From IMG/VR virus record IMGVR_UViG_3300045988_098886: a stretch of DNA of 64,000 bases. One strand, written 5' to 3'. The DNA comes from a virus. Below are positions 14,214-54,258 of the stretch, in pieces (the first letter of the stretch is position 1; each line of letters begins with the position of its first letter). The position numbers were made by a program, and so were the translations under genes. Under the pieces are notes generated by a model, which made no database searches, was not told the DNA's origin, and worked only from the letters and a program-made list of their open reading frames with translations.

Positions 14214-14214
14214 A

Positions 14215-17200
14215 ATGGCGTGTAAATATACTTTAAAAATAAATAGTACTGGAAAGGTTCTTACATTCAATTCTGAAAAAGAACTTGACAACTATCTACT
14301 ATCTAACTACACTGAATTTGAAGGTATGGTTGACCATACCTTTAGATTTAGTAAAGACTACATAACTATGTTAGATACAGAACAGGTAAAATCTCAAGAT
14401 AAACTAGATAAAGATAGGAAACTTGCCTATGAAAAAGCCAAAGCAAGAAATGCTAAAAACGATGATACAATAGTAGTTAAAGGGCAAGGTGAAATGACTG
14501 ATGTCATTGAAAATGAAGAAACATATTCTGACGGATTTATATCAGTTCTAAAATTTTTATCACGTCAGAGAGGCACCTCTGCACCCCTTATTAACGCTTT
14601 CAGTAGGGAAGGGTACAAGAGGAACACCCGTATAGATAGGTCGCAAGGTAAGCCTGAAGACGTCTCTCCAGAAGAGTGGCTAAAACAGGTCGATTCCTCA
14701 ATAGACCAAGACTTTGAATACTGGGATTATTTGCAAGAAATAGGTCGTGGATTCCACTTAGTAATGGATACGGTTATAAATTCCAACTTTGATATTTCTG
14801 CTGACATGGTTGATTCTGTAATTAGTAAAAAGTTTGAAAGAGATTTCTTAGGGGGAAAGAATTTAAGTACGCTTAATGGAGTATCAACTGGGGCATTGAT
14901 GAGTTTTATTAAGGGAATTACAGCTCTAAAGAAAAATATAATCCTCAATAGTGGAAGAGGAAGAAAATTTAAGAAATTCTATACAGAATATGTGGTAGAC
15001 CACGATGGTGGGCCTGATGCGAAGCTTAGAGGTAAGATTGACTTACTTGCAGTATTTGAGGATAATGAAGGTAATCAAAGCGTTGAAATATATGACTTGA
15101 AACTTGCTACTAAACCACAAGATAGATGGGATGCTGATAAGAAAAATACTATTCAATATCAGCTTGGTTTCTACAAAAGAATGTTACAAGCCAAAGGAAT
15201 TGCGGCAAGAAATATATCTACTAAAATTATCCCAGTTCTTATTGAAGGAGACAAAATACTCCACAAGATTGATAAAGTATCAGTCGGAGAACCAGAAGTT
15301 TATCTTCCTAATATTGGACAAAAAGCTAATATTGACGAAATAATTAAAATACCTATTGGTACAGAAAATTTATCTAATCCATTAGAAAATACAGTATCAG
15401 AAAGAATGAGTAAGTTCTTCCCAATGAGTAAAATCAATCCTACTGATATTGTAGACTTTGATATGTTATTTGCTTCTCAAGTACATATTGATAAAAATAC
15501 TGGAGAGTACTGGTTTAGAGATGTTACTAAATCAACTAATGAAAAGGGAGAAATAAGAAGAGCTACTAAAGAAGAAGCGGAAGCTGCATTTGAGGACTAT
15601 CTAGTAAGAAAACTAGAGCATGATAACGATGTAACTCTCGCTATTACTAACAATCTTAAATATAATCTTGATAAGGTAAATGGCTTTGGTGGAAAGAACT
15701 TTAATCCTACAAGGACAGGTTTACAGATTGTTCCAGCTAATACATACGAACCTAAGCTTGGATTGTTTGAAGCAAACTTATCCAAATACAAAAATGAGCC
15801 AGGATGGAACATAATTAGTAATGATGCTCTTACTAATATGAATGTTATTCTTCTTATTAATGAGACAAGAAAAGAAATGGATTTAATTTCTATTGCTTCT
15901 CATGACCTTAATAGTACTATTAATCTAGGTAAGGGTAATAATATTTTTGGAAGATTTAAATCTGATAGAGAAGTAGAACTTGACAAACAAGTAATTAAAG
16001 CCACGGTTGGTAATGTAGAGCTTATGAAACTGCTTTCTATTGCCAATGCTTTTCAAGAAACCGACTTAGGTTCTTATACTATCGGAGAAATGAAGGTAGT
16101 TAATATTGGTAAGAGTGAATATCTTTCTTCCTATTTAAATCAAGAGAAAATAAATCATGCCTTTAATACTCTATCTGAATTATCTGGACAAAGTAAAGGA
16201 AACACATTGAAGTTTACTGATGAGTTTGATATAGCGTGGAGAACCTTTAACAATATCATGAATTATGGAACCTATGAAAATAGGGATAGACTTGATAAAA
16301 TTGCTAAAACGTTATCAATAGATGGAGATATTACATCATTTGATAAACAAGCGAAGATGGACATCCTTACAAGAATGTTCAAGGAACTTCAAGCTAGATA
16401 TTTCTCTACTAATGCATCTGCTGATATTTCTAATCCTATTGCATATTTATTTTTACAAGTATCTAATGCTTTGGCTAAATATGGAAACACTACCATTGAT
16501 ATCTATAATGAAGAACTTTGGGCAAAGAACTTTGGTAATCTGGCGGAGCAGTGGAAAAGGGGAGAATTATTTAATGGTACTTACTTAAATACTATTGATA
16601 CAATCCCAATTGTAAAATCAGTTGCTCATAGATTGGCAGAAACCAACAGAAATATCACTAATTTATATGGTAATTATAAGAACAAAGATAGAGCTATAAC
16701 CAATAAGTTCTATCAGGAATCTGGACAAGGTTTCGTAGGGAAGACCATTATCAATGATTCAACAATTCGTTTTAAAAGATTACTTGACCAATCTGATTCT
16801 GGAAAGAGAAAGTTTATGGTTAAGAATCCATATGATATGTCTACTGATTTAAATCCAGCAGAAAGAAACTATTTAAAATATTGGCTAGAGGATTTAAATA
16901 ATAGAAGATATCCAGGACAGGATAGAGCAGAAGTTGGAGAAAGATACTTTGAAATACCTTTATTAAGAGGTTCCTCATTCTCTAAAATAACTAACGGTAA
17001 GAATCCTCTAGTTACTTATAAAGAAGATGGCTCTTTAGAAATGGTAAACCCAAGAATGACCACAACAGCTCAAGAAGAATACTTATCTACTGATGCTTTA
17101 AAGAACCTTGTAGAAATGTATAACGTGTTTGATATTTCTAATTCAGTAGGGGGAAGAGAAAGACTTCTTTCCGATACTAATGGTAAACCGGAGCAAACAT

Positions 17201-18840
17201 ACGAAACTAACCTTGAGCATATTAAGGATATGTATGTATTCTCTGATATTAGAAAAAAAGAAATGGATACAGTCCTTCCTGCCATTAATGCAGCAATCAT
17301 TTCTCTTCAATTTACACAGAGACTTTCTAATAAAGATGCCCAAGCAACTATCGACTTCTTGAATGATTATATTAAGTCAGCTGTGTTTGATGAATCTTTA
17401 ATTGATAAAGAAAGTAGGGGAACATTCAGAACTTTAGGAATGTTAAAGTCAGTATCTACCAAATTTATTCTTGGTTTTAACTACTTATCAGGAGCTAAAG
17501 AAACTATTACTGGATTCTTTAATCTTTATGAAAGAGCAGTAGCTAACAGTTTACTTGATAAAGACAAGATAGGATTAAAGGATATGACTTCCGCTTATAC
17601 TACTGTTTGGGTTGATTCTGTAAGACAGATAAGCACAATTACTATCTTAGAGCACTTAAACTGGCAATATAGAATGGCTAACGTGGATATGAATGCATTA
17701 GTTAATAGAATGAACTACGAAAAGACTGATGGATTCAGATTTAATGACAGAATGTTCTGGGCTAATAGAGCTCCCGACTTCTTATCAAGAATGACAATCC
17801 TTATTGGCTATATGAAGAAACATGGTTGTTATGATGCACATGAATATAAGAACGGAGAAGTAACTTACAATTGGAAGAAAGATAAGAGATTTAGTCTTCT
17901 TGCAAATCCAAATGCTGACACTAATTCATCTGACTGGCAATATCAAAGGTCTTTATATAACGCTATGATGGAAACTTTCTTTGAAGAAAATTATAAAGTT
18001 CCGAATGCTGACGGAACTTCAAGATTCCTATCAAGAGAAAAGGATTCAAGAGGAGTTTATAAAGAAGCTCTTCCTCAAGCATATACTACTTTGGAAGCTA
18101 ATATGATTAAACAAGAATCTGATGGTATATTTGGATATATGGACCACGATACTAAGTCTTTATATCTAAAGAAAGGAATGTTTATATTCCTTCACCAATT
18201 CCAGACTTTCTTGTCAGCAAAGAAAAACCAATACTTCCTAAAAAGAGGCACTTACGACCAAGGTCATTGGGTTCAGGTAACTGATGATGCAGGAAATAAG
18301 CTTTATTGGGATACTGTTCAAGACAACGAAGGTAACACCATTAGAGTTAAAACTACAGAAAATACTGGAGACCCAATTGTGGATTGGCAAGGTAAAATCA
18401 TGGAAGGAATCGCATGGTCACTTAGAGACTTGTTTAACTTTACTAAGCCAGAGAGAATGAAGGATGCGTGGAGAGACCCTGTAAAAAGAAGAAATCTCCT
18501 ATTAGCTTTAGAAGATGGGGCTATTATAGGAATTATTTATTTAATGCTTGCTTTATTATTTGGAGATAAAGATGCAAAAGCTATGTCAAACACTGAACAA
18601 GCTATCGCAAGAATAGCAAGAAATGTAGGCGGAGAATTTAATATGTTTGCAATCTTTAATGGGGCTGTAGACTTTAAGATGCCTATGTATCAATTCTATA
18701 GTGGATTGTTCGAAGATGGAGTTAAAGTAGCATCCGGTGATATGCATGTATTAAGATTCTTTACTGATAATACTGGAGCATTCAGACCTCTTAAACCAAC
18801 TGTTATAGATAACTTTAAAGCACCTAACGCTAACGAGTAA
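14215..18840 (+). CDS. large 1541-aa virion or ejected protein with N-terminal RecB-like PD-(D/E)xK nuclease motifs and a C-terminal hydrophobic helix
   Basis: The track start 14197 is TTG; the first ATG (14215) follows the upstream TAA directly. Motifs: GKIDLLAV (D at 15040-15042), VEIYDLK (15085-15102), QLGFY (15160-15174). Hydrophobic segment LLLALEDGAIIGIIYLMLALLFG near the C-terminus. Confidence 0.55.
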   Translation: MACKYTLKINSTGKVLTFNSEKELDNYLLSNYTEFEGMVDHTFRFSKDYITMLDTEQVKSQDKLDKDRKLAYEKAKARNAKNDDTIVVKGQGEMTDVIENEETYSDGFISVLKFLSRQRGTSAPLINAFSREGYKRNTRIDRSQGKPEDVSPEEWLKQVDSSIDQDFEYWDYLQEIGRGFHLVMDTVINSNFDISADMVDSVISKKFERDFLGGKNLSTLNGVSTGALMSFIKGITALKKNIILNSGRGRKFKKFYTEYVVDHDGGPDAKLRGKIDLLAVFEDNEGNQSVEIYDLKLATKPQDRWDADKKNTIQYQLGFYKRMLQAKGIAARNISTKIIPVLIEGDKILHKIDKVSVGEPEVYLPNIGQKANIDEIIKIPIGTENLSNPLENTVSERMSKFFPMSKINPTDIVDFDMLFASQVHIDKNTGEYWFRDVTKSTNEKGEIRRATKEEAEAAFEDYLVRKLEHDNDVTLAITNNLKYNLDKVNGFGGKNFNPTRTGLQIVPANTYEPKLGLFEANLSKYKNEPGWNIISNDALTNMNVILLINETRKEMDLISIASHDLNSTINLGKGNNIFGRFKSDREVELDKQVIKATVGNVELMKLLSIANAFQETDLGSYTIGEMKVVNIGKSEYLSSYLNQEKINHAFNTLSELSGQSKGNTLKFTDEFDIAWRTFNNIMNYGTYENRDRLDKIAKTLSIDGDITSFDKQAKMDILTRMFKELQARYFSTNASADISNPIAYLFLQVSNALAKYGNTTIDIYNEELWAKNFGNLAEQWKRGELFNGTYLNTIDTIPIVKSVAHRLAETNRNITNLYGNYKNKDRAITNKFYQESGQGFVGKTIINDSTIRFKRLLDQSDSGKRKFMVKNPYDMSTDLNPAERNYLKYWLEDLNNRRYPGQDRAEVGERYFEIPLLRGSSFSKITNGKNPLVTYKEDGSLEMVNPRMTTTAQEEYLSTDALKNLVEMYNVFDISNSVGGRERLLSDTNGKPEQTYETNLEHIKDMYVFSDIRKKEMDTVLPAINAAIISLQFTQRLSNKDAQATIDFLNDYIKSAVFDESLIDKESRGTFRTLGMLKSVSTKFILGFNYLSGAKETITGFFNLYERAVANSLLDKDKIGLKDMTSAYTTVWVDSVRQISTITILEHLNWQYRMANVDMNALVNRMNYEKTDGFRFNDRMFWANRAPDFLSRMTILIGYMKKHGCYDAHEYKNGEVTYNWKKDKRFSLLANPNADTNSSDWQYQRSLYNAMMETFFEENYKVPNADGTSRFLSREKDSRGVYKEALPQAYTTLEANMIKQESDGIFGYMDHDTKSLYLKKGMFIFLHQFQTFLSAKKNQYFLKRGTYDQGHWVQVTDDAGNKLYWDTVQDNEGNTIRVKTTENTGDPIVDWQGKIMEGIAWSLRDLFNFTKPERMKDAWRDPVKRRNLLLALEDGAIIGIIYLMLALLFGDKDAKAMSNTEQAIARIARNVGGEFNMFAIFNGAVDFKMPMYQFYSGLFEDGVKVASGDMHVLRFFTDNTGAFRPLKPTVIDNFKAPNANE

Positions 18841-18852
18841 ATGAAAAAAAAA

Positions 18853-18898
18853 TAAGGGCGCCAATCAAGTAGTTTTACCTACCTGACTGACGCCCTTA
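18853..18898. terminator. convergent (bidirectional) hairpin terminator between the plus-strand virion block and the minus-strand block
   Basis: TAAGGGCG (18853-18860) pairs with CGCCCTTA (18891-18898). An inner imperfect stem pairs TCAAGTAG with CTACCTGA. An A-run lies upstream and TTTTA downstream. It sits in the only gap between convergent genes. Confidence 0.6.
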
Positions 18899-18902
18899 AA
18901 TT

Positions 18903-19559
18903 TTATCGTTCTAACATGTTCATAGTATCATCATAAGCTAATGTTATAGCTTTAACGTAATATTTCATATCCAAATTGTTTTCGATTATTATATCGACTC
19001 TTATACTATCAATAAGTTTCTCACTTATGTGATTTCCTGCTCCACTACCGTCTCGTTCTATTTTCCATAAAACTCCACCAGCATTTCGTATAGCATCTGC
19101 TTCATTTGGAAACCTGACATCTGGAATAATCCAGTGACTTTCTTTATCCCGACCATAGCTATACATTAACGCCTTTATCCATAAGTCTTTATCAATATTT
19201 CTTCCTACTTCTGTTCCAAAGTATTGAAGAAATTCTCTATTGGTCATGGGCTCTCCCTCTTTATTAGATAAAGGCAGTGTAGTAAAAGATTCTTTGAAGG
19301 AATTATATTCAAAACTTTCCCTACTTACCCCAAGTATCAGTGACGCACATTCTTTTAATTTATCAGCAAATGCATGCTTTTCCCATCTACAACCCATTAC
19401 AATAGTCTCGCTGTTTAGGTTTTCTAAAACAAAATCTTCTTCTGAAATTTTTAGTCGTTCTTCGTCTCCCAATAAGTATCTATAGTAGTCTACTAATTGT
19501 ACTATTTTACACGCAGTATCCTTCCCTGATTGGGCTTTTCCTGTTATTCCAATTATCAT
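18903..19559 (-). CDS. deoxynucleoside monophosphate kinase (T4 gp1-like)
   Basis: N-terminal P-loop IGITGKAQSGKDT and a later IPDVRFPNEADAIR block, typical of the phage dNMP kinase family. Confidence 0.7.
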   Translation of the reverse strand: MIIGITGKAQSGKDTACKIVQLVDYYRYLLGDEERLKISEEDFVLENLNSETIVMGCRWEKHAFADKLKECASLILGVSRESFEYNSFKESFTTLPLSNKEGEPMTNREFLQYFGTEVGRNIDKDLWIKALMYSYGRDKESHWIIPDVRFPNEADAIRNAGGVLWKIERDGSGAGNHISEKLIDSIRVDIIIENNLDMKYYVKAITLAYDDTMNMLER

Positions 19560-19774
19560 TTCATGTAGTATTTTAGTTCATTAAGAACAAAAGTAGGGTC
19601 TAGATACGGCATCTTTTCCCTAATTTTGTTATATTGCTCGACAAGTTCTTTTTTGTCAGCTATCTCATCAGAAAACCCTAAGAAACCGTCACTATCTGAC
19701 TTAAGAATAAGTCTATGAATTTCACATGAAATTGCAAAGAGTATCGGGTCTGACGTCTCAAGATTGTTCATCAT
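19556..19774 (-). CDS. hypothetical protein
   Basis: 72-aa ORF with 4-nt overlaps to both neighbours. Confidence 0.5.
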   Translation of the reverse strand: MMNNLETSDPILFAISCEIHRLILKSDSDGFLGFSDEIADKKELVEQYNKIREKMPYLDPTFVLNELKYYMK

Positions 19775-20232: not shown

Positions 20233-20422
20233 TTTCTTCTAATATGTTTAAAGTTATACCTCCTATACCCATTAACAGTATGGCAGAGACGCATACTCCA
20301 AACCATACATTAAGTGAATATGTAAATGCTAAAAATAATGCCACTAGGGTTATACCTCCTATCCCAATGGCCCCGAGTGCAAAAAATAATGCTATTCGTT
20401 TTCGTAAATCTTCTTTATCCAT
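20216..20422 (-). CDS. small membrane protein (two predicted TM helices)
   Basis: Hydrophobic stretches FFALGAIGIGGITLVALFLAF and FGVCVSAILLMGIGGITL; coupled to neighbours. Confidence 0.5.
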   Translation of the reverse strand: MDKEDLRKRIALFFALGAIGIGGITLVALFLAFTYSLNVWFGVCVSAILLMGIGGITLNILEENERGY

Positions 20423-20804
20423 TTTTCTTTATAGTATGTCTTCTTTTGATATTTTGAGCAGTGCCACTATTCCAACGGCCTTCCCTGACATAAGCAATAT
20501 CAACATCTGACACTCTTGTCATTGCCGCGTCTCTATCTTCGTCAGTCTTGTAATATCCCATATAACTTATCATTGATTCATCTTTGGGAGTATTTCTGGG
20601 ATTTTCAAACATGTGATATATTGTTAAACCACATGGAAGGTTTTCTGTTATAAAGTCCATAGCCATCTTATCTACTCCTTCATAATCACCTACCACAAAT
20701 CCTTCAAAATCTTGATTGTGGTAGGCAGAGTAAATAGCTGGAACGTAGTACTTCTTAAATTCTTCTTCTGTAATGTCTCTATGTCCGCTTATAAAATATA
20801 TCAT
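20415..20804 (-). CDS. SLOG/DUF2493-like nucleotide-binding protein (tentative)
   Basis: MIYFISGHRD start, VVGDYEGVDKMAMDF and C-terminal GRWNSGTAQNIKR resemble the SLOG (Smf/DprA-LOG) layout recalled from memory. Confidence 0.4.
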   Translation of the reverse strand: MIYFISGHRDITEEEFKKYYVPAIYSAYHNQDFEGFVVGDYEGVDKMAMDFITENLPCGLTIYHMFENPRNTPKDESMISYMGYYKTDEDRDAAMTRVSDVDIAYVREGRWNSGTAQNIKRRHTIKKNG

Positions 20805-21355
20805 GGAACTATTTGTGCGTCTAAGTCTTTTTCAAAGACGTTAATATTATACCAAGAGATTGCCTCAAGGATTCTATCTTCATGGTTAAATGCCCATTTG
20901 TATTTTGAAATATCTCTTATAGGAACCCATTGGATAGTTTTTACTTCATTTTTCTCACCATCTCCATTCAATACAGCTTCCATAGAAGTAGATACATTAT
21001 CTTTTCCGTATTTAAGAATGGTCATATAACGTAATGTTACATTGCCGTTATTACAGTGTTCTGGGTCTGTCTCAACTCCAAATAAAGCCCATTTAGATGG
21101 GTCAATTTTAACTCCAGTTTCTTCAAATGCTTCACGAGAGCAGGCTTCTTCCGCTTTTTCCATATCTAGAAAACCGCAAGGACAGTTCCAATAACCTTGG
21201 AAATCGGGAGTTCCTTCTCCTCTTTGGTTAGCCAAGACACACCATTCACCCTTGATTTTACAAAATGCGAATGCAGCAACTGCACAATATCGACCAGACC
21301 ATAAGGTCTTGCCAGCATGTTCTCCTTCTTCAATTGTATAACTCCAATTTCTCAT
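20801..21355 (-). CDS. Nudix hydrolase (possible ADP-ribose or NAD-related pyrophosphatase)
   Basis: Nudix box GFLDMEKAEEACSREAFEETGV fits GX5EX7REUXEEXGU. The substrate is inferred only from the NAD-gene neighbourhood. Confidence 0.8.
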   Translation of the reverse strand: MRNWSYTIEEGEHAGKTLWSGRYCAVAAFAFCKIKGEWCVLANQRGEGTPDFQGYWNCPCGFLDMEKAEEACSREAFEETGVKIDPSKWALFGVETDPEHCNNGNVTLRYMTILKYGKDNVSTSMEAVLNGDGEKNEVKTIQWVPIRDISKYKWAFNHEDRILEAISWYNINVFEKDLDAQIVP

Positions 21356-21777
21356 TTATGTCTTCTTTTTGTTTTAGATGTTTCTTCGAGTTCTTCCAAT
21401 GGATTATACTTTAGGTCATTGTAAGGCATTAATGAAGTGCCTGCAATCCCTACCAAAGTCTTTCCATCATACTCTGATTTATAGATAGATAATACTTTAT
21501 CAGTTTTCCTTTTATATGCAATATATATTGGAATGTCTTTCTTATGACAGGTTTCAAGTTCTTTCTTGGTTCCTCTAGTCATGTCTTCGACTTTGATTCC
21601 CCAATTGAAATCATTTATAATAAACACTGCAATATCAGAACCAGTTAATAAGGAACTTTCATACTTGGTTCCCATTTTCCAGTGGTTTGGCTCATAACCA
21701 AGAGAGTCCAGAAATATTTCTACTTCTGGAACTAAGTTAGTATATTGCATACTATATGATACATATGCTTTATTCAT
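21352..21777 (-). CDS. nucleoside 2-deoxyribosyltransferase-like / TIR-like fold protein (tentative)
   Basis: Start moved to ATG 21777 (MNKAYVSY; AATGAATAA overlap with the nadD stop). SDIAVFIINDF ... RGTKKELETCHKKDIPIY resembles the D..GT..E.G...gKP pattern of NDT-like proteins. Confidence 0.35.
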   Translation of the reverse strand: MNKAYVSYSMQYTNLVPEVEIFLDSLGYEPNHWKMGTKYESSLLTGSDIAVFIINDFNWGIKVEDMTRGTKKELETCHKKDIPIYIAYKRKTDKVLSIYKSEYDGKTLVGIAGTSLMPYNDLKYNPLEELEETSKTKRRHK

Positions 21778-22330
21778 TTTTATAAAGATTAAATCGGTGA
21801 ATGTATTGGCTAATAGCTTTAGGTACAAGAGGGTAAATTTGTTTCTTGTCCCTAACCAAATACCTAATCATAGTAGAGCTTACGTCAAAAGTACAACTAA
21901 TATACCCATCCACCTTCGCCTTGAATGAACTGTTGGCTCTATTTACTGCAATCAGCTTAAAGTTTTCTAATATCCATTCTCCTTCCTTCCAATTTGCAAT
22001 ATCATCTACAATGTCTGCACCTACAATCAGATAAAGTTCTTCGTTTGGATAATATTCCTTCAAAAGTTGTAGGGTTTGATAGGAATAGTGAGGTTCTGGA
22101 GTGTAATAGTCAATACTAGATATTGTGCAATTATCAATTTCATCAATAGCCAGTTGTGTCATAAAACACCGGTGTTGAAATTCAGTTGCTTCGCGGTCTT
22201 TCCACACATTCTGCATAGTTGGAACCACCACTACTTCGTCAACCAAGTTATCATTTAGTGCTGATGTAATCATGTACAAATGACCCATATGGATTGGGTC
22301 AAATGTTCCTAATAAAAATCCTACTTTCAT
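21770..22330 (-). CDS. nadD: nicotinate/nicotinamide mononucleotide adenylyltransferase
   Basis: GTFDPIHMGHLYM ((T/H)xGH motif) and C-terminal VSSTMIRYL (ISSTxxR motif). Confidence 0.85.
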   Translation of the reverse strand: MKVGFLLGTFDPIHMGHLYMITSALNDNLVDEVVVVPTMQNVWKDREATEFQHRCFMTQLAIDEIDNCTISSIDYYTPEPHYSYQTLQLLKEYYPNEELYLIVGADIVDDIANWKEGEWILENFKLIAVNRANSSFKAKVDGYISCTFDVSSTMIRYLVRDKKQIYPLVPKAISQYIHRFNLYKNE

Positions 22331-22350
22331 TTTTATATATTTTAATTTTT

Positions 22351-22809
22351 TTAGTCTACGAAATATCCACGAGAGTCCAATTCTTTTGATAAAAAACTAA
22401 TAGCTTCTACACTGTATCGTTCGGTCAACTCCTCTATTTCATTGAGTAAATCATTAACCAAATCAGATACACCACAGAACCCTATATTTCCCACGAAATC
22501 GACAAGATTTTTAATAAGTTCGGGGTCATCTACCTCGAACTTCATTTCATCCTCGAAATCATCAGGAAGATAATCGTCGTCAGCATTATAGTATCTTTCT
22601 TGAACATATACTTCCACCAAGTCAAGAGTGGCATGGACTGTCTCTTCCTCAAGTCTAACAGTCAATCTAAATGCCTGAGAATCATCGTCCATTTTCTCAA
22701 CTATCATATAGAAAGAATCTTCCCATGTATAATCATAGTCAGATACAAGATAGTTGGCTTCTTTTAGAGCAACTAATAACTGCTCATATATTTCGTCAAT
22801 CGTTTTCAT
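22351..22809 (-). CDS. acidic hypothetical protein
   Basis: 152-aa ORF rich in D/E runs (NADDDYLPDDFEDEMKFEVDD); 14-nt overlap with the nadE end. Confidence 0.5.
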   Translation of the reverse strand: MKTIDEIYEQLLVALKEANYLVSDYDYTWEDSFYMIVEKMDDDSQAFRLTVRLEEETVHATLDLVEVYVQERYYNADDDYLPDDFEDEMKFEVDDPELIKNLVDFVGNIGFCGVSDLVNDLLNEIEELTERYSVEAISFLSKELDSRGYFVD

Positions 22810-23800
22810 ATTCTTTTCTGGGTATATAAATTGGAGCTTTCTTACGTTTAAATTCGGAAGCTAAATGTCGGCTCCAAACCTTATTGACTACATCTTCTCC
22901 ATGTTTAGCACATAACTGTGACCAGCAATCAGATTCTGCCATTTCATCATGTGGGTGCATGATTTGTCCAGCTGAATCATAGCTTTTTCTAAAGTCCTCG
23001 AATGGAATGAATCTACTAAGGATATCATCCACAGTAGCGTAGTCCTTAGCACCTATCTGGTCTAAGTCACTATTACTAATACCAAGACCATCAGTGGGAA
23101 CTAGCTTGCAAGAATTATATATAGCACATGACATTGCTTTATAATTATCGCAAGTTTCTTTATAATCATTACGAAGAGCTTCTAGAGCTTTACTTTTATA
23201 ATGGTCTTGCAAATAGTTTGCCAGTCCGTAAACTTCAGTCTTCCACAGGTCTTGAATAGGGTCAAAGTCACCAACATCACCATGAATAGTCCAGAATCCA
23301 AGCTGATATTCAGTTTGATTATCTGTACTCATTACTAATCCCTTGCGAATAGATGCTATATCATAAAGATGTATCATTCTACATCTAGCTTGGATATTGC
23401 CATTAGCAATAGGGGTTCTGCCAGCCAGTTCTTCTAAATCACTTAGCCAATACCAGTCGTAGCCTTTACAGTCTTTAATCAATCCTGCATCAGCACAAAG
23501 GTCAAATAAGGATGCCTTGTAAGAATCACTCAGATTGAATACTTTAAATTCATCACAGAAGGCTTCTCCGACAAGTTTAGATACGTCAAACTCATCTTCT
23601 TTATTCTTAATAGGAAGACTTCTACCTATAAGAGGAATGCCAGTCTTCTTACTAACTTCATGGCAGATAGCAGCAACAACAGTGGAGTCAATTCCTCCAC
23701 TGATGCCTAATACCATTGCTTTCAAACCATTAGAAGTAACATAATTTGCTGTTTCTTCTACTAAGGTATTAAATACCTTTTCATAATTTAATTCTTTCAT
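22796..23800 (-). CDS. nadE: NAD+ synthetase
   Basis: PP-loop GISGGIDSTVVAA close to the N-terminus; size and layout fit the NadE family. Confidence 0.8.
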   Translation of the reverse strand: MKELNYEKVFNTLVEETANYVTSNGLKAMVLGISGGIDSTVVAAICHEVSKKTGIPLIGRSLPIKNKEDEFDVSKLVGEAFCDEFKVFNLSDSYKASLFDLCADAGLIKDCKGYDWYWLSDLEELAGRTPIANGNIQARCRMIHLYDIASIRKGLVMSTDNQTEYQLGFWTIHGDVGDFDPIQDLWKTEVYGLANYLQDHYKSKALEALRNDYKETCDNYKAMSCAIYNSCKLVPTDGLGISNSDLDQIGAKDYATVDDILSRFIPFEDFRKSYDSAGQIMHPHDEMAESDCWSQLCAKHGEDVVNKVWSRHLASEFKRKKAPIYIPRKEYEND

Positions 23801-23958
23801 TGTTTTACTCGTTTAAGATAATAAACTATTACCCGACTGGAAACTCTGCCTCCTGATAAGAACTTAATTATAGTTGCGACTAATTCCCAACCGTCATCGC
23901 CCAGTCGATTAAGCTCTTCGCAGGTAATGTCTGTTTTTTCTAAATATTCAAATTTCAT
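23797..23958 (-). CDS. small DUF4177-like protein (tentative)
   Basis: The track start 23979 is TTG. ATG 23958 gives an ATGA overlap with the pncB stop. LNRLGDDGWELVA resembles the DUF4177 GWELV signature. Confidence 0.4.
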   Translation of the reverse strand: MKFEYLEKTDITCEELNRLGDDGWELVATIIKFLSGGRVSSRVIVYYLKRVKQ

Positions 23959-25115
23959 AGTCCAAGTTCTGCTAAACAAGAGTTAACTTCCATTGCACGT
24001 CCCGTATGTTTGCCTTCATCATCAGATAGCTTTACACAGTCATATACCGGCTGATTAGAGTTCATCTGACAAGATGTAAGTTTCATAACAATGTTAGAGG
24101 GTTTAAATCCAGTGTCATTGGTAAGGTTTGTACCTATACCGAACGATGCTCTAATTCTAGTCATACAATAGAGAGCAATATCTTCAGCCTTTTCAAAATC
24201 CAAAGCATTACTAAAGATAATGATTTTCGTAGTTGGGTCTATGCCCAATTCTTTATAGCGAGCAATCATTTTATTTACAAATTCATACTCGTCTCCAGAA
24301 TCACATCGTACTCCGTCAAACAACTTAGCTTGTTTACGTGAGAAGTTCTTGATGAATACATTCGATGTGTAAGTATCGGTAAGAGCTATTCCCAAGTCTC
24401 CGTCATAGACATTTACCCAATTCTCAAGAGCCATATAATTAGCTTGTTTGTAACCGTACATAGCGCCATGAAACATAAACCATTCATGTGGATGTGTTCC
24501 CATTGGTTTCATGTCATACTTCATCGCAAAGTAGCAGTTGGAAGTTCCGGTACAATAGATTGATTTCTCTTTAATATACTTAATAACTTCTTCTTGTATA
24601 TTGTAAGAGAATCTTCTACGAGTTCCAAATTCGGAGAAATAAATTCCTGATTGATTGGAACGTTTGATTTTACTTTCCAATTTATTAAGCATTACAGGAA
24701 TGTTGACCTTATAGCCTAACATCCTATTTCTTAATTCTGAAACCATTGCAAGAATAGGAACTTCATAAAGAGAAACTTTATAAAGATAATCCTTTGCTAT
24801 AATGTGAAGATGTTTTTCTTCATCCAAGAAGATTTGTACTTTACTTGGGTTAAATGTGAATTGAGATAACCATTCCCAGTAATGTCTTGGAATGAATCGA
24901 ATAGAGTTCATAAACTCAAATTCATCACTTGTAAGTCTTACCTGAGCAAGGTTATATAACTCAATACGAAGTTGCTCAACAAACTCTTCTGTGTATTCAG
25001 TATTATCACGGTCTTTAAACTCAAAAGTTCCTACCGCTTGTGGGAACAACTTCATGTAAGCATAAGAAGTTGTAAACTTGTATAAATCTGTATCTAAAAT
25101 TGATTTAATTATCAT
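23955..25115 (-). CDS. pncB: nicotinate phosphoribosyltransferase
   Basis: Colinear with E. coli PncB blocks: ILDTDLYKF, FGTRRRFS, GTSN, PMGTHPHEW, LGIALTD, DSGD, LGIDP..K..FS, SFGIGTNLT, KLSDDEGK. Confidence 0.85.
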   Translation of the reverse strand: MIIKSILDTDLYKFTTSYAYMKLFPQAVGTFEFKDRDNTEYTEEFVEQLRIELYNLAQVRLTSDEFEFMNSIRFIPRHYWEWLSQFTFNPSKVQIFLDEEKHLHIIAKDYLYKVSLYEVPILAMVSELRNRMLGYKVNIPVMLNKLESKIKRSNQSGIYFSEFGTRRRFSYNIQEEVIKYIKEKSIYCTGTSNCYFAMKYDMKPMGTHPHEWFMFHGAMYGYKQANYMALENWVNVYDGDLGIALTDTYTSNVFIKNFSRKQAKLFDGVRCDSGDEYEFVNKMIARYKELGIDPTTKIIIFSNALDFEKAEDIALYCMTRIRASFGIGTNLTNDTGFKPSNIVMKLTSCQMNSNQPVYDCVKLSDDEGKHTGRAMEVNSCLAELGL

Positions 25116-25720
25116 TTCTCTATTGGTTGATAAATGTTTAACTTATTTTCTTTTATAAATTTTTGGAGTGTTGTTCCGCCATCAATAGATGCAATCCCTG
25201 GGAGGTATACTGAAAGCCTATCCCAAATAGGTTGCAAGTTCTTAATTGTGTTAAGTACACAATAATCTCCCGCAACTCCACAAATTACAATTTCCGATTC
25301 ATTCGAAAGGTATATGTCAGCTCTACTATCGTAAATATCATCAAGCGAATAAGTATAATGGCTTTTCCTGTTTGGGTCAGGTTTAAGGTCTGGAAAAGCC
25401 CCATATTCCTCTTTAAACAGTCCTTTCTCAATTACATCGTATCGGAGATTATTATTTCTACAAGCTGTAAGAAGTAAATCATTAATTGCCGCACCTTGGG
25501 AATATTGGACACAATGAACTGGCCACTCTCCTCCATTTTCTTTAAAAGAAGGATGAAAGAAAGCGTGCCAGTCCACAGTAAACCACACTCTATCAAAATG
25601 CTCTTTATACATTAATTCTTCTATATTCCATAAAGCAGGAGTGGCTCCCTTTACATATAAAGAGCCACTCTCTAAGCAGAAATCATTCTGCATATCAACT
25701 ACTATAAGTATTTTACTCAT
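25112..25720 (-). CDS. pncA: nicotinamidase (isochorismatase family)
   Basis: ILIVVDMQNDFC N-terminal block and GVAGDYCV catalytic-Cys block. Confidence 0.8.
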   Translation of the reverse strand: MSKILIVVDMQNDFCLESGSLYVKGATPALWNIEELMYKEHFDRVWFTVDWHAFFHPSFKENGGEWPVHCVQYSQGAAINDLLLTACRNNNLRYDVIEKGLFKEEYGAFPDLKPDPNRKSHYTYSLDDIYDSRADIYLSNESEIVICGVAGDYCVLNTIKNLQPIWDRLSVYLPGIASIDGGTTLQKFIKENKLNIYQPIEK

Positions 25721-25905
25721 CGACTCCAGCTACTAAATATTCCTGCAATTGCAACAATAGCCAACCATAAGGCTATCGGAATCCATAATGGGCTTAAGAC
25801 CCACCACCAAGACCAAGCTATGACGCCACATAGCTTAAGAACAATAAATACTATAAGAAGAATTCCACCTATGCCAATTCCTCCACTACTGTTACTATTA
25901 CTCAT
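25717..25905 (-). CDS. small membrane protein
   Basis: GGIGIGGILLIVFIVLKLCGVIAWSWWWVLSPLWIPIALWLAIVAIAGIF is almost entirely hydrophobic. 4-nt overlaps on both sides. Confidence 0.55.
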   Translation of the reverse strand: MSNSNSSGGIGIGGILLIVFIVLKLCGVIAWSWWWVLSPLWIPIALWLAIVAIAGIFSSWSR

Positions 25906-26597
25906 AATTCAATTATTAAAGGTTCAAATGATTGAATGTATCTCTCGTCTACTAAAGACACATTTGCCATTTTCATATCATCTAAAGTCATCAATCTGTG
26001 TTCTCCTGAATGAATGTGTCCACAGAAAGCATACTTTGGATGTTTTCTCATAATTTCATCAGCCAACCAAGGATTACCTACATCCTCTCTAGTCCATGAC
26101 TGATGAATAACACCTAATCCACACAGCTTAGGAGCATCGTGTGAGATTACTATATCACAATGTTCGGGCATTGTGGAGTACGCTTCTATAAGAGTTTTCT
26201 CCTCATACATATATGCCCAATTTCCAAATATCTTGCAATATGGAGTTCCCCAAATTGTGTATTCGGTTCCATCTTTATAATCAATGTAAGTATATGACTC
26301 ATTATCGAGCATTACTAACTTCCCATCAGTGGGAGTATAAAGAAGGGAATTTTTGGAAAGAGTATTCTGATATATAGACGCTAATGCAAAGTCATGATTT
26401 CCGCCTACCATAAATACTTTTTCACAAGGTAAATCTTTTACCCATTGAGCAAATTCATGACTGAGCCATTTCTTGCTTTGTGGGATATTTCTTTGCATCT
26501 TTAGTGGGGTAATATCCCCACAGATTAAGTAAATATCACACTCTTCTTTTATTTCTGGAAGAATCCCATGTAAGTCTGATAATGCGCCAAATTTCAT
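25902..26597 (-). CDS. metallophosphoesterase (calcineurin-like)
   Basis: Ordered motifs SDLHG, GDITP, GGNHD, SHDAP, GHIHSG. Confidence 0.8.
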   Translation of the reverse strand: MKFGALSDLHGILPEIKEECDIYLICGDITPLKMQRNIPQSKKWLSHEFAQWVKDLPCEKVFMVGGNHDFALASIYQNTLSKNSLLYTPTDGKLVMLDNESYTYIDYKDGTEYTIWGTPYCKIFGNWAYMYEEKTLIEAYSTMPEHCDIVISHDAPKLCGLGVIHQSWTREDVGNPWLADEIMRKHPKYAFCGHIHSGEHRLMTLDDMKMANVSLVDERYIQSFEPLIIEL

Positions 26598-28155: not shown

Positions 28156-28332
28156 TTAATCATTATATGATATTATTTTGTAATATACGGTACTACCTAC
28201 CCAACGCCAACCCAGATAATTTACTGGAACCCATGCAGGTTTACTAAGCAAATCTCTAAATTCTAATGGCGTTAGATTACGTACTATATCTGTTTGTGGT
28301 GATGCTCCCTCAAGACTTATTAATACCTTCAT
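28156..28332 (-). CDS. small hypothetical protein (58 aa, below the ORF-track cutoff)
   Basis: Hand-translated ATG 28332 to TAA 28156: MKVLISLEGASPQTDIVRNLTPLEFRDLLSKPAWVPVNYLGWRWVGSTVYYKIISYND. It fills an otherwise empty 167-nt gap, overlaps the upstream gene by 23 nt and ends 13 nt before the next ATG. Confidence 0.5.
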   Translation of the reverse strand: MKVLISLEGASPQTDIVRNLTPLEFRDLLSKPAWVPVNYLGWRWVGSTVYYKIISYND

Positions 28333-29215
28333 GTTTTAACCAGTCTTGGAAGTACCACAATTGTCCACATCCTCCACCAATATCGTCCTGACCAGCAGGA
28401 TTAAATACTCTAGTGGAGAAACCTAGTTCACAGAGTCTCCTGTTAAAGTCTCTAATAAGACGAATTTGTCTATCAATAGAATTCTTTACAGTTTCATCCT
28501 TTTCACAAATTACAGAAAGAGTAGTTTCCCAAACATCGGTTCGAAAGAGTTTGTACAGTCTCCTTGCGTCTTCTTCTGTATCATTTCCTTCATGTACACA
28601 GTAATTGAAGAATGGTTTTCTTCCTGTGTTCGCTGCCCAAAATTCTCCCGCAGCAGCAATCTGGCGGAGAGTACAAGTCTTAGTCGGAATTAATTTTGCT
28701 CTAGCTTCATCAGTTGATTCATGTACTGAAAACTGCAATCCGACTTGAGGTATTCTTTTGGAGAGTTCAATAAACTCTGACATTGCATGATATAATGTAG
28801 ATGGAGCAGATGTGGACACTAATAGTTGAGCATTTGGATATAAGTCATGTAAAGACTCGATAGCTCGCTCCAAATTGATATAATTCAGAAATGGCTCTCC
28901 CATACTCATGAACATAATTTGGAATTTCTCAATGTCTTTAGTATTACAATCAATGGTACTTAGAACTGTAGTTACTTGTTCTATTATCTCATGCCAATCA
29001 AGATTCCTTACAAAGAACTTTCCTGTTCCACAGAACGTACAGCCAACCGGACATCCAGACTGTACAGAACAGCAAATTACTGTTCTCTTCGCGTATTCTC
29101 CATAACGATAAAGGACTGCTTCTGCAATTCCTTTTTTCGTTACTGCACTAGCTCCCCATTCAAATACAAACTTCTTGACATTAGTGTCAGAAGATTCAAA
29201 AATCTTATATTCCAT
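28310..29215 (-). CDS. RlmN/Cfr-family radical SAM RNA methyltransferase-like protein lacking the N-terminal accessory domain
   Basis: Colinear with E. coli RlmN: CCSVQSGCPVGCTFCGTG (CxxxCxxC plus the preceding Cys), NLDWHEIIEQV, FMSMGEPFLN, VSTSAP, LQFSVHESTDEARAKLIP and C-terminal GGGCGQL. Confidence 0.75.
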   Translation of the reverse strand: MEYKIFESSDTNVKKFVFEWGASAVTKKGIAEAVLYRYGEYAKRTVICCSVQSGCPVGCTFCGTGKFFVRNLDWHEIIEQVTTVLSTIDCNTKDIEKFQIMFMSMGEPFLNYINLERAIESLHDLYPNAQLLVSTSAPSTLYHAMSEFIELSKRIPQVGLQFSVHESTDEARAKLIPTKTCTLRQIAAAGEFWAANTGRKPFFNYCVHEGNDTEEDARRLYKLFRTDVWETTLSVICEKDETVKNSIDRQIRLIRDFNRRLCELGFSTRVFNPAGQDDIGGGCGQLWYFQDWLKHEGINKS

Positions 29216-31287: not shown

Positions 31288-33447
31288 TTAGTGAATCCAA
31301 TGGTCTCCAATTGATATATCTGCTGTTAATGGTGCTCTTGTACAAAATGGCTTACCTCCAGATTCCATACATTGAACTAATATCTTAGCTACTTCTTCTG
31401 CTATCTCTTCCGGAGCTTCAAGATTGATTTCATCATGTACAGGAATACAATACTTAACTTTAAAAAGCAAGTTATTTTCCTTTAGCCAATTAAATAGCTT
31501 TATAGAAGCTAATTTAAAGCACAATGCTCCTGCTCCTTGAATTGGATAATTTACAGACTGCTTCATAGAGTCAGATAATCTTCTTCTTAAGAAGTCAGCT
31601 TCTTGGAACAATGGATTACTCTCATCCCGAGTTTGCATAGCATACTGCCCATCTACTGTCCCTAAATCATCATTTATTCTATTCAGATTATCCCAATCAT
31701 AAATAAATGCTTTATGTCCTGTCACAGGACTTAGCAAAATATATCCATGTTTCACAACAAATTCCTTTTGACGTTCCTGATATGCCTTCAATCCCGCGAA
31801 ACCATTCATATAATTATCCTCAATTTCTTGAGCTCTCCTTTTCGGGATACCATAGTTTCTTACTAAAGTAGAAGCATTACCTGCATAATTAAAGCAGAAT
31901 TCATATCCCTTTGCCTCTTGTCTAAGTTCTGGGAATTGTTTTTTTACTTTTTCAGTAGGCATATCTTGAGGAATTTTGTCCTTAAATACCATCTTGGCTG
32001 TCAGAGAATGCATATCTTTAGAACCATTAATAAGTTCATCAAGCATAGCTTTATCATTAGCGACGGATGCCATTAGGAAAGATTCTTGTCCACTATAATC
32101 CACAGATATCCATTTGTTTCCAGGCTCTGAAACGAAACAGGCTCTAGTAATTGCAGTATGCGGAAGATTTTGGAGATTCGGATTACTTGAACTTAATCGT
32201 CCCGTATCCGTTCCAAGCTGATAAAAGTCAGCATGAATACGCCCACTTACTGGATTTATAAGCTTTAAAAACTTCTCTCCAAAAGCCTTTACTAATTGTC
32301 CTGTCTTTTTAAACTCTATATAAGGTTCAATAATAGAACATTTAGCTTTCTGTGGTTCAATAATATCAATTCCAGCAGATTTAGTTTTCTGCTTAGTTTT
32401 CTTGTCTACTGTTGTACAATTTATTCCAAGTAATTCAAATAGTGGAACGACTTGTTTACTACTGTTCCAGTTTATATTACACCTATATGCGTTATCAAAT
32501 CCAGAGAATAAATCTCCTTGCAGATTCATTTCTACATAGTCGAAAGGTATTCCAAATGAATATTCTATTCCTTCATCAACAACTTTCCTCTTTACTCCAA
32601 ATGCAGTGGGAGGAATCTTCATCAAATCTTTCATTTCCTTTCTAAGTGTAGTCATAATACTTGTCTTTACAAACGGACGATTTTTCAGCTGTGGGTCTGG
32701 ATGAATCATTTTATGTTCTTCATAAAAATCTTCCACCCATTTATTAATACTTGCTTCGGCATCCTTCATTTGCCTAATATCATCCTTCATTTTAGCTCTC
32801 CATTTGTCTACATCAATCTTTGCACCACAATATTCAATATAGGCAATAACAGGAACAAAATGATTTTCAAAGTCAACAGCTCTAAGAAGGTCTTTCTTTA
32901 CCAACTCAACTGTTTGCTTCTCTTTAATCTTAGTAAGATAAACAACATCATGTGCAGCATAAACTATGACATCTTCTGTTAATCCAGTATTAACAATCTT
33001 ACCCCGAATACTCTTATCCAAGTCTAAACCTAAATAATGGTGTGCTGCAGATTGTAAAGACAGGCTATGAAATTGGGCTGGATATCCCAAATATAATAGC
33101 TTCTCAGCTATCATTCCGTCCCATACATTTACAGGGACTATTCTGTGATGATATAAAAATTTCAAATCAAATGAAAGATTCCATCCTAGTAATGTAATAT
33201 CAGGATTCTCAAACACTGGTCTAAAATAATTAACATCAATTGTTGTAGTATCTACTACTATTTGGTCCTCACCTAAGCCAAATTGAATACATAATAAAGC
33301 TTTAGTGTAAGGGTCCAATCCTTCAGTTTCACTATCATATTCAATCCATTTGTGTTTTAGGATTTGCTCTAAAGCATCTTCTTTAGACATGATTTCATAT
33401 GCATCGGACTTAAAGAATCTTTGCTGCGTAGTAACTAGATAAATCAT
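31288..33447 (-). CDS. family A DNA polymerase with 3'-5' exonuclease domain
   Basis: Exo motifs YDSETEGL, NLSFDLKFL, YAAHDVVYL. Pol motifs DYSGQESFLMA (A), RQEAKGYEFCFNYAG (B), PVHDEINLE (C). Also TGRLSSSNPNLQNLP. Confidence 0.9.
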   Translation of the reverse strand: MIYLVTTQQRFFKSDAYEIMSKEDALEQILKHKWIEYDSETEGLDPYTKALLCIQFGLGEDQIVVDTTTIDVNYFRPVFENPDITLLGWNLSFDLKFLYHHRIVPVNVWDGMIAEKLLYLGYPAQFHSLSLQSAAHHYLGLDLDKSIRGKIVNTGLTEDVIVYAAHDVVYLTKIKEKQTVELVKKDLLRAVDFENHFVPVIAYIEYCGAKIDVDKWRAKMKDDIRQMKDAEASINKWVEDFYEEHKMIHPDPQLKNRPFVKTSIMTTLRKEMKDLMKIPPTAFGVKRKVVDEGIEYSFGIPFDYVEMNLQGDLFSGFDNAYRCNINWNSSKQVVPLFELLGINCTTVDKKTKQKTKSAGIDIIEPQKAKCSIIEPYIEFKKTGQLVKAFGEKFLKLINPVSGRIHADFYQLGTDTGRLSSSNPNLQNLPHTAITRACFVSEPGNKWISVDYSGQESFLMASVANDKAMLDELINGSKDMHSLTAKMVFKDKIPQDMPTEKVKKQFPELRQEAKGYEFCFNYAGNASTLVRNYGIPKRRAQEIEDNYMNGFAGLKAYQERQKEFVVKHGYILLSPVTGHKAFIYDWDNLNRINDDLGTVDGQYAMQTRDESNPLFQEADFLRRRLSDSMKQSVNYPIQGAGALCFKLASIKLFNWLKENNLLFKVKYCIPVHDEINLEAPEEIAEEVAKILVQCMESGGKPFCTRAPLTADISIGDHWIH

Positions 33448-34742: not shown

Positions 34743-34911
34743 TTGGAATTACATCTAAGTTTGTTAAATAAAATCTGTCATCGTTTAGGTCTTTCTGTAC
34801 GAAATACCCATTAACTTCGACATTTTCTCCATTAAGAGTATGTATCATTACTACTCTATCTTGGTCGTATTTCTGGAGAATTTCAATTAATTGTCCTACT
34901 AGTATTCCCAT
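34735..34911 (-). CDS. small hypothetical protein (58 aa, below the ORF-track cutoff)
   Basis: Hand-translated: MGILVGQLIEILQKYDQDRVVMIHTLNGENVEVNGYFVQKDLNDDRFYLTNLDVIPND. TAATG junction with the Thg1-like stop and ATGACTGA overlap with the next gene. It fills the 168-nt gap exactly. Confidence 0.55.
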   Translation of the reverse strand: MGILVGQLIEILQKYDQDRVVMIHTLNGENVEVNGYFVQKDLNDDRFYLTNLDVIPND

Positions 34912-35696: not shown

Positions 35697-35697
35697 A

Positions 35698-54045: not shown

Positions 54046-54258
54046 TTATAAAGCGTCTATATCAATGACATCGCCTACTTGAGCATTAGCTGCTTCAACG
54101 ATATCAACAAACTCATTCCAATCTCCAGGATAATCTAAATCCCAGAGATTTACATAAGTTTCAATGATTTTATCCTTAGCTTCCTGAAGACTTCTGGCTG
54201 TAACTTTTTCAATCCAGACGCTATCAGATGTGCCAAAAGGAACTACGTATGTGTTCAT
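54046..54258 (-). CDS. hypothetical protein
   Basis: 70-aa ORF with a 4-nt overlap with the ARH end. Confidence 0.5.
   Translation of the reverse strand: MNTYVVPFGTSDSVWIEKVTARSLQEAKDKIIETYVNLWDLDYPGDWNEFVDIVEAANAQVGDVIDIDAL

Follow-up and report, generated by a model that had tools for sequence, protein, structure and literature searches.

A very probable nicotinamide-to-NAD+ salvage operon in an apparently crAss-like phage and its candidate role against NAD+ depletion

Why should a phage encode every step of a route from nicotinamide to nicotinamide adenine dinucleotide (NAD+), next to genes that look related to ADP-ribose? The question is raised by a cluster of genes at positions 20415-26597, on the minus strand, of a 64-kb stretch of viral DNA (hereafter the window) from the IMG/VR record IMGVR_UViG_3300045988_098886. 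The original prediction, made from the sequence alone, recognized the enzymes PncA, PncB, NadD and NadE and proposed that they rebuild NAD+ destroyed by antiphage defences. Analysis of the open reading frames (ORFs) with the Pfam, NCBIfam and PHROG profile libraries, applying curated cut-offs for family calls, and comparison with related viral loci confirm that the cluster is real and indicate that it is very probably a working NAD+ salvage operon. Of its possible roles, the one that we favour, with modest confidence, is that of a phage-assembled, co-transcribed NAD+ salvage module that mainly counters NAD+ depletion.

The motifs first noticed for PncA, PncB, NadD and NadE are all present in the minus-strand ORFs to which they had been assigned, and hidden Markov model (HMM) searches agree with the four identifications: PncB (TIGR01514, 430.9 bits, cut-off 269.55; NF003704, 446.7 bits, cut-off 379), NadD (TIGR00482, 143.9 bits, cut-off 112.45) and NadE (TIGR00552, 117.8 bits, cut-off 63.65) exceed equivalog cut-offs, and PncA exceeds that of the Pfam Isochorismatase family (PF00857, 37.3 bits, cut-off 27) and falls below that of its only NCBIfam match, the nicotinamidase model NF008623. 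PncB carries both the N-terminal (PF17767) and the catalytic (PF04095) domains, aligns over residues 2-385 with the nicotinate phosphoribosyltransferase (NAPRTase) of Porphyromonas gingivalis (PDB 2im5, E 4e-117), and has the motifs GTRRR, H210-E211 and GIGTNLTND, conserved among phage orthologues. The nearest solved relative of NadD is the Bacillus subtilis enzyme (PDB 1kam, E 4e-25); models of NadR reach only 20-28 bits on it. NadE is matched by a single Pfam family, PF02540 (118.7 bits), and therefore appears to possess no glutaminase domain; its top PDB relatives are the short NH3-dependent structures 3p52, 1xng and 3fiu, and the large glutamine-dependent NadE enzymes appear only as weaker matches.

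Residue conservation was computed on orthologues from 81 viral loci, which comprise the best 80 of approximately 400 IMG/VR viral contigs found by alignment to encode a relative of the window PncB, plus GenBank MT835470. Across 58-65 distinct phage orthologues of the four enzymes, residues involved in catalysis and metal binding vary little or not at all, although identity drops to 23% for PncA and NadD: H14-x-G16-H17 of NadD is invariant in 58/58 orthologues and its S152-T153-x-x-R156 (SxTxxR) is conserved, and SGGIDS of NadE is kept in 63/65. PncA is the weakest of the four calls on sequence grounds. It is strengthened by its PDB sequence matches, of which nine out of nine are nicotinamidases or pyrazinamidases, and by alignments with them that span the VDMQNDF, DWH..H, WPxHCV, Lys and GDYCV stretches. 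Residues D9, K99 and C154, which we take to be the Asp-Lys-Cys catalytic triad, and D50, H52 and H69, presumably the metal site, align (as does H56) with the nicotinamidase structures 3r2j, 29iv and 1ilw, and these six are unchanged in 57-58 of 58 orthologues. Catalytic residues are intact and conserved in all four enzymes, as the original prediction had them, and the pattern of conservation looks like purifying selection on active enzymes.

Given the established biochemistry of the four families, from which we infer both the activities and their order, PncA would convert nicotinamide to nicotinate and NH3; PncB would convert nicotinate and phosphoribosyl pyrophosphate (PRPP), with ATP, to nicotinate mononucleotide (NaMN); NadD would join NaMN and ATP into nicotinate adenine dinucleotide (NaAD); and NadE would amidate NaAD to NAD+ with ATP and NH3. 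The sequences support this as a complete pathway through nicotinate, NaMN and NaAD, and together the four genes have a high probability of yielding a functional NAD+ route. A different chemistry, in which NadE acts as a nicotinamide mononucleotide (NMN) synthetase on NaMN and the NadD-family enzyme then adenylylates NMN, or in which the pathway mainly provides NAD+ or NaAD for a phage process such as ADP-ribosylation, NAD-capping of RNA or signal mimicry, is improbable. The enzyme of Francisella (3fiu), among the short NH3-dependent structures nearest to the phage NadE, amidates NaMN and not NaAD, and an ADP-ribosylglycohydrolase (54255-55058, minus strand; PF03747, 125.7 bits; phrog_6572), encoded 28 kb from the module, suggests that this phage handles ADP-ribosylation. 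However, NadD passes the nicotinate(nicotinamide)-nucleotide adenylyltransferase equivalog cut-off and is closest, among solved structures, to NadD enzymes that prefer NaMN; the window revealed no ADP-ribosyltransferase; and both step orders end in NAD+.

The four genes travel together. All four enzymes are encoded within 10 kb in 70 of the 81 loci, and the loci that fall short are mostly truncated contigs. The recurrent gene order is PolA-ThyX-phosphoesterase-(radical SAM)-phosphoesterase-membrane protein-PncA-PncB-(small ORF)-NadE-(acidic protein)-NadD-(141-aa protein)-Nudix-SLOG-YqeY-deoxynucleoside monophosphate (dNMP) kinase, in which the members in parentheses vary among loci. A second query, centred on a megaphage PncB and likewise yielding the best 80 IMG/VR contigs, sampled more distant phages, including contigs of 290-405 kb from non-gut samples, which encode NadE-PncA-PncB, often with NadD and Nudix, in differing orders. 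Four-gene co-occurrence in the close loci and the different arrangements in the distant ones together argue that the clustering is not due to chance. In two otherwise intact relatives (L016/L078 and L014/L075), PncB appears interrupted or truncated, with 61% and 79% covered; frameshifting, misassembly or a loss of activity may account for this. PncB is rare among GenBank phages: of 50,697 records 13 contain it, and three of these, two entered as Acinetobacter "phage" and one as Moraxella phage Mcat17, are bacterial DNA or flank. The PncB-matching records labelled "Acinetobacter phage MD-2021a" (CAKLQH020000008.1) are ordinary bacterial chromosome, with glmS, ribH, nusB and phoR nearby, and the pncB match in Mcat17 (KR093641.1) lies beyond the annotated attR.

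The nearest bacterial relatives of PncB, from Bacteroides and Phocaeicola, are 67-69% identical to it, and by sequence PncB is clearly of Bacteroidales descent. Such similarity, and the fact that some "phage" PncB matches in databases are bacterial DNA, could point to a passenger or an artefact, that is, recent capture of a host gene or assembly or binning contamination with no role in the phage; this is very improbable. Host pncB is solitary, with no partner gene within 8 kb in seven Bacteroides, Phocaeicola or metagenome-assembled genome loci with the closest PncB; the phage cluster lies within an array of phage genes between PolA and the dNMP kinase, in a setting shared by over 70 independent viral contigs drawn from many samples; the catalytic residues are kept over deep divergence; and base composition is uniform across the region (GC 0.35-0.36). 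Capture of a host operon en bloc was rejected on the evidence of the seven loci, and contamination or misbinning on that of the conserved phage context. The solitary state of bacterial pncB, together with a phage NadE type that differs from the large glutamine-dependent enzymes, implies that the cluster was assembled in phages from differing sources, which argues for selection on the whole pathway as a unit. NadE, PncA and NadD also show mosaic, allele-like divergence among otherwise near-identical phages, which we count in favour of the favoured reading. NadE can be as little as 63-65% identical between phages whose flanking genes are ~99% identical (loci L023-L096), with blocks at about residues 91-120, 181-240 and 270-300 falling to 6-50% identity and the P-loop and residues 121-180 remaining above 90%; in the sister lineage, NadD is 28-32% and NadE 82-93% identical.

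The minus-strand genes form a tight array (Table 1): adjacent genes overlap by 4-25 nt or are separated by gaps of 20 nt or less, the sole strong terminator-like hairpin directly follows the dNMP kinase gene, and a hairpin scan revealed no convincing terminator inside the unit. This packing and the single strong terminator at the end suggest that the array constitutes a single transcription unit or the distal portion of such a unit. A scan for sigma-70 promoters returned 50 sites against 54.8 expected from shuffled sequence; the consensus is ill-suited to Bacteroidales and the result was not used.

Table 1. Genes and terminator of the leftward array, in order of transcription; positions are those of the window
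Feature	Position	Strand	Basis or remark
Metallophosphoesterase, MPPED2-like, 231 aa	25902-26597	-	PF00149; first gene of conserved module
Small two-helix membrane protein, 62 aa	25717-25905	-	hydropathy
PncA nicotinamidase, 202 aa	25112-25720	-	PF00857 and catalytic residues
PncB nicotinate phosphoribosyltransferase, 386 aa	23955-25115	-	TIGR01514
Small DUF4177-like ORF, 60 aa, variable member	23797-23979	-	PF13783 just under cut-off
NadE, NH3-dependent NAD+ synthetase type, 334 aa	22796-23800	-	TIGR00552
Acidic protein, 152 aa, pI 4.05, lineage-restricted	22351-22809	-	no family match
NadD nicotinate-mononucleotide adenylyltransferase, 186 aa	21770-22330	-	TIGR00482
Small alpha/beta protein, 141 aa from ATG at 21777 (TTG ORF reaches 21828)	21352-21777	-	
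Nudix hydrolase, 184 aa	20801-21355	-	PF00293
YspA/DUF2493-type SLOG-domain protein, 129 aa	20415-20804	-	predicted fold
Small two-helix membrane protein, 68 aa	20216-20422	-	hydropathy
YqeY-domain protein, 153 aa	19771-20232	-	PF09424, 84.1 bits
72-aa ORF	19556-19774	-	
Deoxynucleoside monophosphate kinase, last gene of leftward unit	18903-19559	-	PF21448, 67.1 bits; phrog_139, 160.9 bits
Intrinsic-terminator-like hairpin, 20-bp stem then T run	18853-18898	-	ends leftward unit

The companions bear on the purpose of the module. Pfam places two of those that the original prediction had named, a Nudix hydrolase (PF00293, 49.4 bits) and a metallophosphoesterase (PF00149, 39.6 bits; phrog_1649), and a confident structural model places the third, a SLOG-like protein. 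The Nudix protein possesses a Nudix box (REx2EE), and its residues G61, E66, R74, E75, E78, E79 and G81 are invariant in 52/52 orthologues; it co-occurs with the four enzymes in distant phage lineages as well. Its best NCBIfam match is weak (22.5 bits) and is to the Nudix part of a bifunctional NMN adenylyltransferase/Nudix protein of the NadM type, with a further weak match to the model of the ADP-ribose-responsive regulator NtrR; it also has a proline 16 residues past the box, which we take to be diagnostic of the ADP-ribose pyrophosphatase subgroup. ADP-ribose pyrophosphatase is the likeliest activity of the Nudix protein as judged from its sequence. The metallophosphoesterase, whose top PDB relative is mammalian MPPED2 (3rl4, E 1.5e-9), has all five metal motifs (DxH, GD, GNHD, H and GHxH) invariant in 47 distinct orthologues, and adjoins the 62-aa membrane protein and PncA in 67/81 loci.

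The 129-aa SLOG protein, present in 60/81 loci, has no HMM match, but nr gives the name YspA to one of its 411 homologues. Its AlphaFold model (predicted local distance difference test, pLDDT, 92) superimposes on DprA, LOG and molybdenum cofactor (Moco)-carrier structures with Foldseek template modelling (TM) scores of 0.57-0.64 at PDB E-values above 1e-3, and matches viral YspA/SLOG, DprA-like and DUF2493 proteins with E-values down to 5e-8; the loop G39-D40-x-x-G43-x-D45 is conserved. Assignment as a SLOG protein of the YspA/DUF2493 type is thus supported, with moderate confidence, by the predicted fold. An extra 187-aa gene between the acidic protein and NadD in 14/81 loci (L003 10737-11300), absent from the window, contains an HSGGADGSD motif reminiscent of SLOG/DprA-type loops and has no Pfam match.

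The "NDT-like" identity proposed for the ORF at 21352-21828 finds no HMM, fold or PDB profile support. The 141-aa protein encoded there matches nothing in NCBIfam, PHROG or Pfam (the latter even at E up to 10), and has 23 close homologues only; its AlphaFold model, built on a shallow alignment, has a pLDDT of 62 and Foldseek matches at chance level. A profile search of 1.8 billion representatives returned 149 remote relatives; among the 60 scanned, two match TIR_2 and one matches STALD, and through these three the protein may be faintly linked to the TIR/SLOG class of Rossmann-like domains. Neither comparison with the SLOG family by hhalign nor profile searching of PDB sequences gave a match. 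Two positions of the protein, G69 and E73, hardly vary.

Hydropathy confirms the two small membrane proteins that had been listed in the cluster, although the 68-aa one lies mostly beyond the limits originally given for the cluster. The 62-aa protein, encoded immediately upstream of PncA in 62/81 loci, has two hydrophobic windows of 19 residues, a grand average of hydropathy (GRAVY) of 1.37 and no Pfam family above cut-off; the 68-aa protein is present in 12/81 loci, the closest only. The two flank the module and share the motif IGIGGI(L/T)L, and may be paralogues. Among the remaining genes of the array, the YqeY-domain protein is found in 68/81 loci; the 152-aa acidic protein, without a family match in Pfam, NCBIfam or PHROG, only in the 12 closest of the 81; and the 60-aa ORF (DUF4177, 23.9 bits, cut-off 25) in 35/81, its place between PncB and NadE being taken in 4/81 by a DUF7448 gene (95 bits; L010 9158-9541).

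The cluster is phage-encoded, as first proposed, and the carrier appears to be a crAss-like phage: the best classified matches of its PolA (31288-33447) are all Crassvirales, with 50% identity to Steigviridae cr111_1 and cr108_1, 44% to IAS virus and 41% to crAss001, which places it nearest Steigviridae by sequence. Consistent with this, giant ORFs of 3290, 1127 and 1547 aa (965-18840) run on the plus strand, opposite to the module, as in crAss-like genomes; they have no PHROG match at E <= 1e-5 and presumably encode divergent virion-associated proteins typical of such genomes. Closely related contigs are 64-188 kb long and the PolA relatives are crAss-like genomes of ~100 kb. Hosts of the Bacteroides or Phocaeicola type are proposed. 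In cr111_1 (NC_055880.1), PolA is followed directly by the dNMP kinase gene, whereas in the window the two are 11.7 kb apart and the NAD module fills much of a gap that also contains ThyX, two phosphoesterases, a radical SAM gene, small ORFs and YqeY; the module thus looks like an accessory island within the replication block. The radical SAM gene (28310-29215, minus strand), which resembles RlmN/Cfr RNA methyltransferases (TIGR00048, 107.9 bits, cut-off 290; GCxxGCxFC motif), is found only in the closest relatives (22/81 loci). Elsewhere on the minus strand of the window are a Thg1-like tRNA-His guanylyltransferase, a PNKP-type kinase/phosphatase and an ATP-dependent ligase (34911-36612 and 40072-41262), which look like an RNA/tRNA repair set, and a second radical SAM protein (55357-56277) with faint matches, including one to a viperin-family model (26.5 bits, cut-off 180).

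This location, in a block of nucleotide-metabolism and replication genes that includes ThyX, dNMP kinase, dUTPase and an anaerobic ribonucleotide reductase, fits the alternative that the module is a general metabolic augmentation, raising the supply of NAD(P) on which replication and nucleotide metabolism of the phage draw in anaerobic gut hosts, independently of any defence. The host has its own pncB, so that the phage copy could be a flux booster, and phage NAD+ genes have been treated first as metabolic genes (PMC11662467, PMC11780533). Yet the 64-kb window yielded no enzyme that consumes NAD+, and its ligase is ATP-dependent, on which ground an NAD+-dependent ligase was rejected, for this window, as what the module serves; the conserved link with Nudix and SLOG genes and a start from nicotinamide, the product of NADases, instead of from nicotinate alone, fit recycling after NAD+ cleavage; and NARP2, a related two-enzyme salvage route, is experimentally active against NAD+-depleting defences. 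We regard metabolic augmentation as a possible but doubtful explanation, and one that computation cannot separate from counter-defence.

Counter-defence, the role that we favour, is plausible and a reasonable reading of the locus because the NAD+ reconstitution pathways NARP1, NARP2 and NARP3 provide precedents and because the module has neighbours related to ADP-ribose. Defensive NADases release nicotinamide and ADP-ribose or an ADP-ribose derivative; the module would take up the nicotinamide, and a route that starts there would be independent of which derivative the defence leaves. The Nudix hydrolase would convert ADP-ribose to AMP and ribose 5-phosphate, from which host enzymes could regenerate ATP and PRPP; more speculatively, the SLOG protein and the MPPED2-like phosphoesterase might bind or degrade ADP-ribose-derived or cyclic-nucleotide by-products or signals. 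The selective value would lie in keeping or rebuilding the NAD+ pool during infection, above all under abortive-infection effectors of the TIR or SIR2 type. Whether countering NAD+ depletion is the main reason for which the phage keeps the module seems to us evenly balanced. A bolder version is tentative and rather unlikely: that the four enzymes, Nudix recycling of ADP-ribose and destruction or sequestration of ADP-ribose-derived or cyclic-nucleotide immune signals by SLOG and phosphoesterase constitute, as one integrated unit, a fourth, deamidated NAD+ reconstitution pathway, which, in needing nicotinamide alone, would defeat defences that spoil ADP-ribose, such as aRES, and would be a major determinant of which Bacteroidales strains are open to infection by abundant crAss-like phages of the human gut. 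The aRES system spoils the ADP-ribose product and blocks NARP1.

Several points weigh against this role. Each NAD+ costs PRPP, three ATP and ammonia by the biochemistry of the families, and a cell with a collapsed NAD+ pool may struggle to afford the PRPP and three ATP. Since the host owns PncB, and presumably also NadD and NadE, what the phage contributes is flux and not new chemistry. PncA reaches 45.2 bits with NF008623 against an equivalog cut-off of 174, and the last two steps may run in either order, since the short NadE type includes that of Francisella. The Nudix enzyme, whose substrate, like those of the SLOG and phosphoesterase proteins, is a prediction, could even hydrolyse NAD(H). 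The module is absent from cultured or reference Crassvirales, and none of the 13 PncB-positive GenBank records is a named crAss phage. No experimental test of the deamidated route as counter-defence was found in the literature.

The literature also qualifies the novelty of the locus. The original prediction took a complete PncA/PncB/NadD/NadE set to be undescribed in phages, which is contradicted by two studies. The first (PMC11662467; Microbiome 2024) describes 174 gut jumbo phages in which NAD+ salvage or Preiss-Handler pathways are complete; it names a pncB-nadD-nadE cluster (e.g. in Kuafu_71), mentions pncA in phages, gives Bacteroidota as hosts of the human-associated ones, and suggests a counter-defence role against NAD+ depletion, for which it says verification is needed. 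Like those phages, the present one has clustered pncB, nadD and nadE and a complete deamidated route in gut metagenomes, and comparable gene sets occur on very large viral contigs in our survey; unlike the jumbo phages (>200 kb), it appears to belong to a crAss-like podovirus lineage with related contigs of 64-188 kb, its pncA is within the operon, and it has a fixed accessory set of metallophosphoesterase, small membrane protein, Nudix and YspA-type SLOG. The second study (PMC11780533; Theranostics 2025) finds K01916, K00969, K08281 and K00763 (nadE, nadD, pncA and pncB) encoded together by viral contigs of the human gut; these are the identical four enzymes, in shared genetic contexts, treated as disease-associated metabolic genes, without mechanism, carrier lineage or accessory-gene analysis. 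Its control-enriched viral operational taxonomic units (vOTUs) include crAss-like viruses; the NAD-encoding contigs are not stated to be crAss-like. The main comparative crAss paper mentions no NAD, nicotinamide or Nudix genes in its main text, and a search of the literature for "NARP4" found nothing. Within the literature searched, the crAss-like carrier lineage and the fixed accessory set of phosphoesterase, membrane protein, Nudix and SLOG appear to be new.

Three reconstitution pathways provide the closest functional comparison: NARP1 and NARP2 (10.1101/2024.02.11.579819, in which the activity of NARP2 against NAD+-depleting defences was demonstrated) and NARP3 (PMC13464706). The module resembles NARP2 (Nampt and Nmnat; KVP40 NadV/NatV type) in starting from nicotinamide and PRPP, ending in NAD+ and being independent of ADP-ribose, and NARP2 is often linked to a Nudix domain (NadM/NatV type). 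It differs in taking four steps, through nicotinate, NaMN, NaAD and re-amidation, in place of two amidated steps through NMN, at the cost of one more ATP and ammonia, and in using PncB (TIGR01514) rather than NadV as phosphoribosyltransferase; PncB, the sole phosphoribosyltransferase, is an equivalog, and its match to the PHROG "nicotinamide phosphoribosyl transferase" is weak (47.9 bits). NARP1 (Adps and Namat), its ADPR-1P phosphatase extension and NARP3 (PnuC and NadR) are, like the module, phage operons that restore NAD+, and the accessory phosphatases reported in NARP1 operons (10.64898/2026.01.28.702374) are a precedent for enzymes that pre-process NADase products. Scans of the ORFs between 18.9 and 29.8 kb, covering all long and most short ones, found no PRPS-like Adps, Namat, Macro phosphatase, PnuC or NadR in the cluster, and the 62-aa and 68-aa membrane proteins have no PnuC match. 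An association between NAD+ salvage and Nudix has been reported, viral SLOG domains have been predicted to process ADP-ribose-derived molecules, and both Nudix and SLOG are placed within the viral repertoire of NAD+/ADP-ribose conflict (PMC9503650); gut Bacteroidota carry TIR NADases (PMC9092222), a point in favour of counter-defence. Bacterial Preiss-Handler salvage (PncA/PncB with the universal NadD/NadE) employs the same four enzyme families and identical chemistry. However, pncB is unclustered with the other three in the sampled bacterial genomes, and only the phage unites all four with Nudix, SLOG and phosphoesterase genes and has a short NadE without a glutaminase domain.

Bacterial antiphage immunity commonly ends in NAD+ depletion, and experiments have established three phage pathways for rebuilding NAD+. 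This locus presents the deamidated route as a conserved, phage-assembled operon in an apparently crAss-like lineage, part of the dominant group of human gut phages. That a phage should synthesize NAD+ will not surprise a specialist; how widely crAss-like gut phages carry the route, and the companions conserved with it, still make it a good experimental target, and a compact cassette of ~6 kb lends itself to questions such as how the Preiss-Handler route fares in Bacteroides against defences of the TIR, SIR2 or RES types, why the costlier route is retained and what its partners do. Should a role in counter-defence prove negative, the locus would represent a phage metabolic gene set that could affect the turnover of niacin and NAD+ in the gut.

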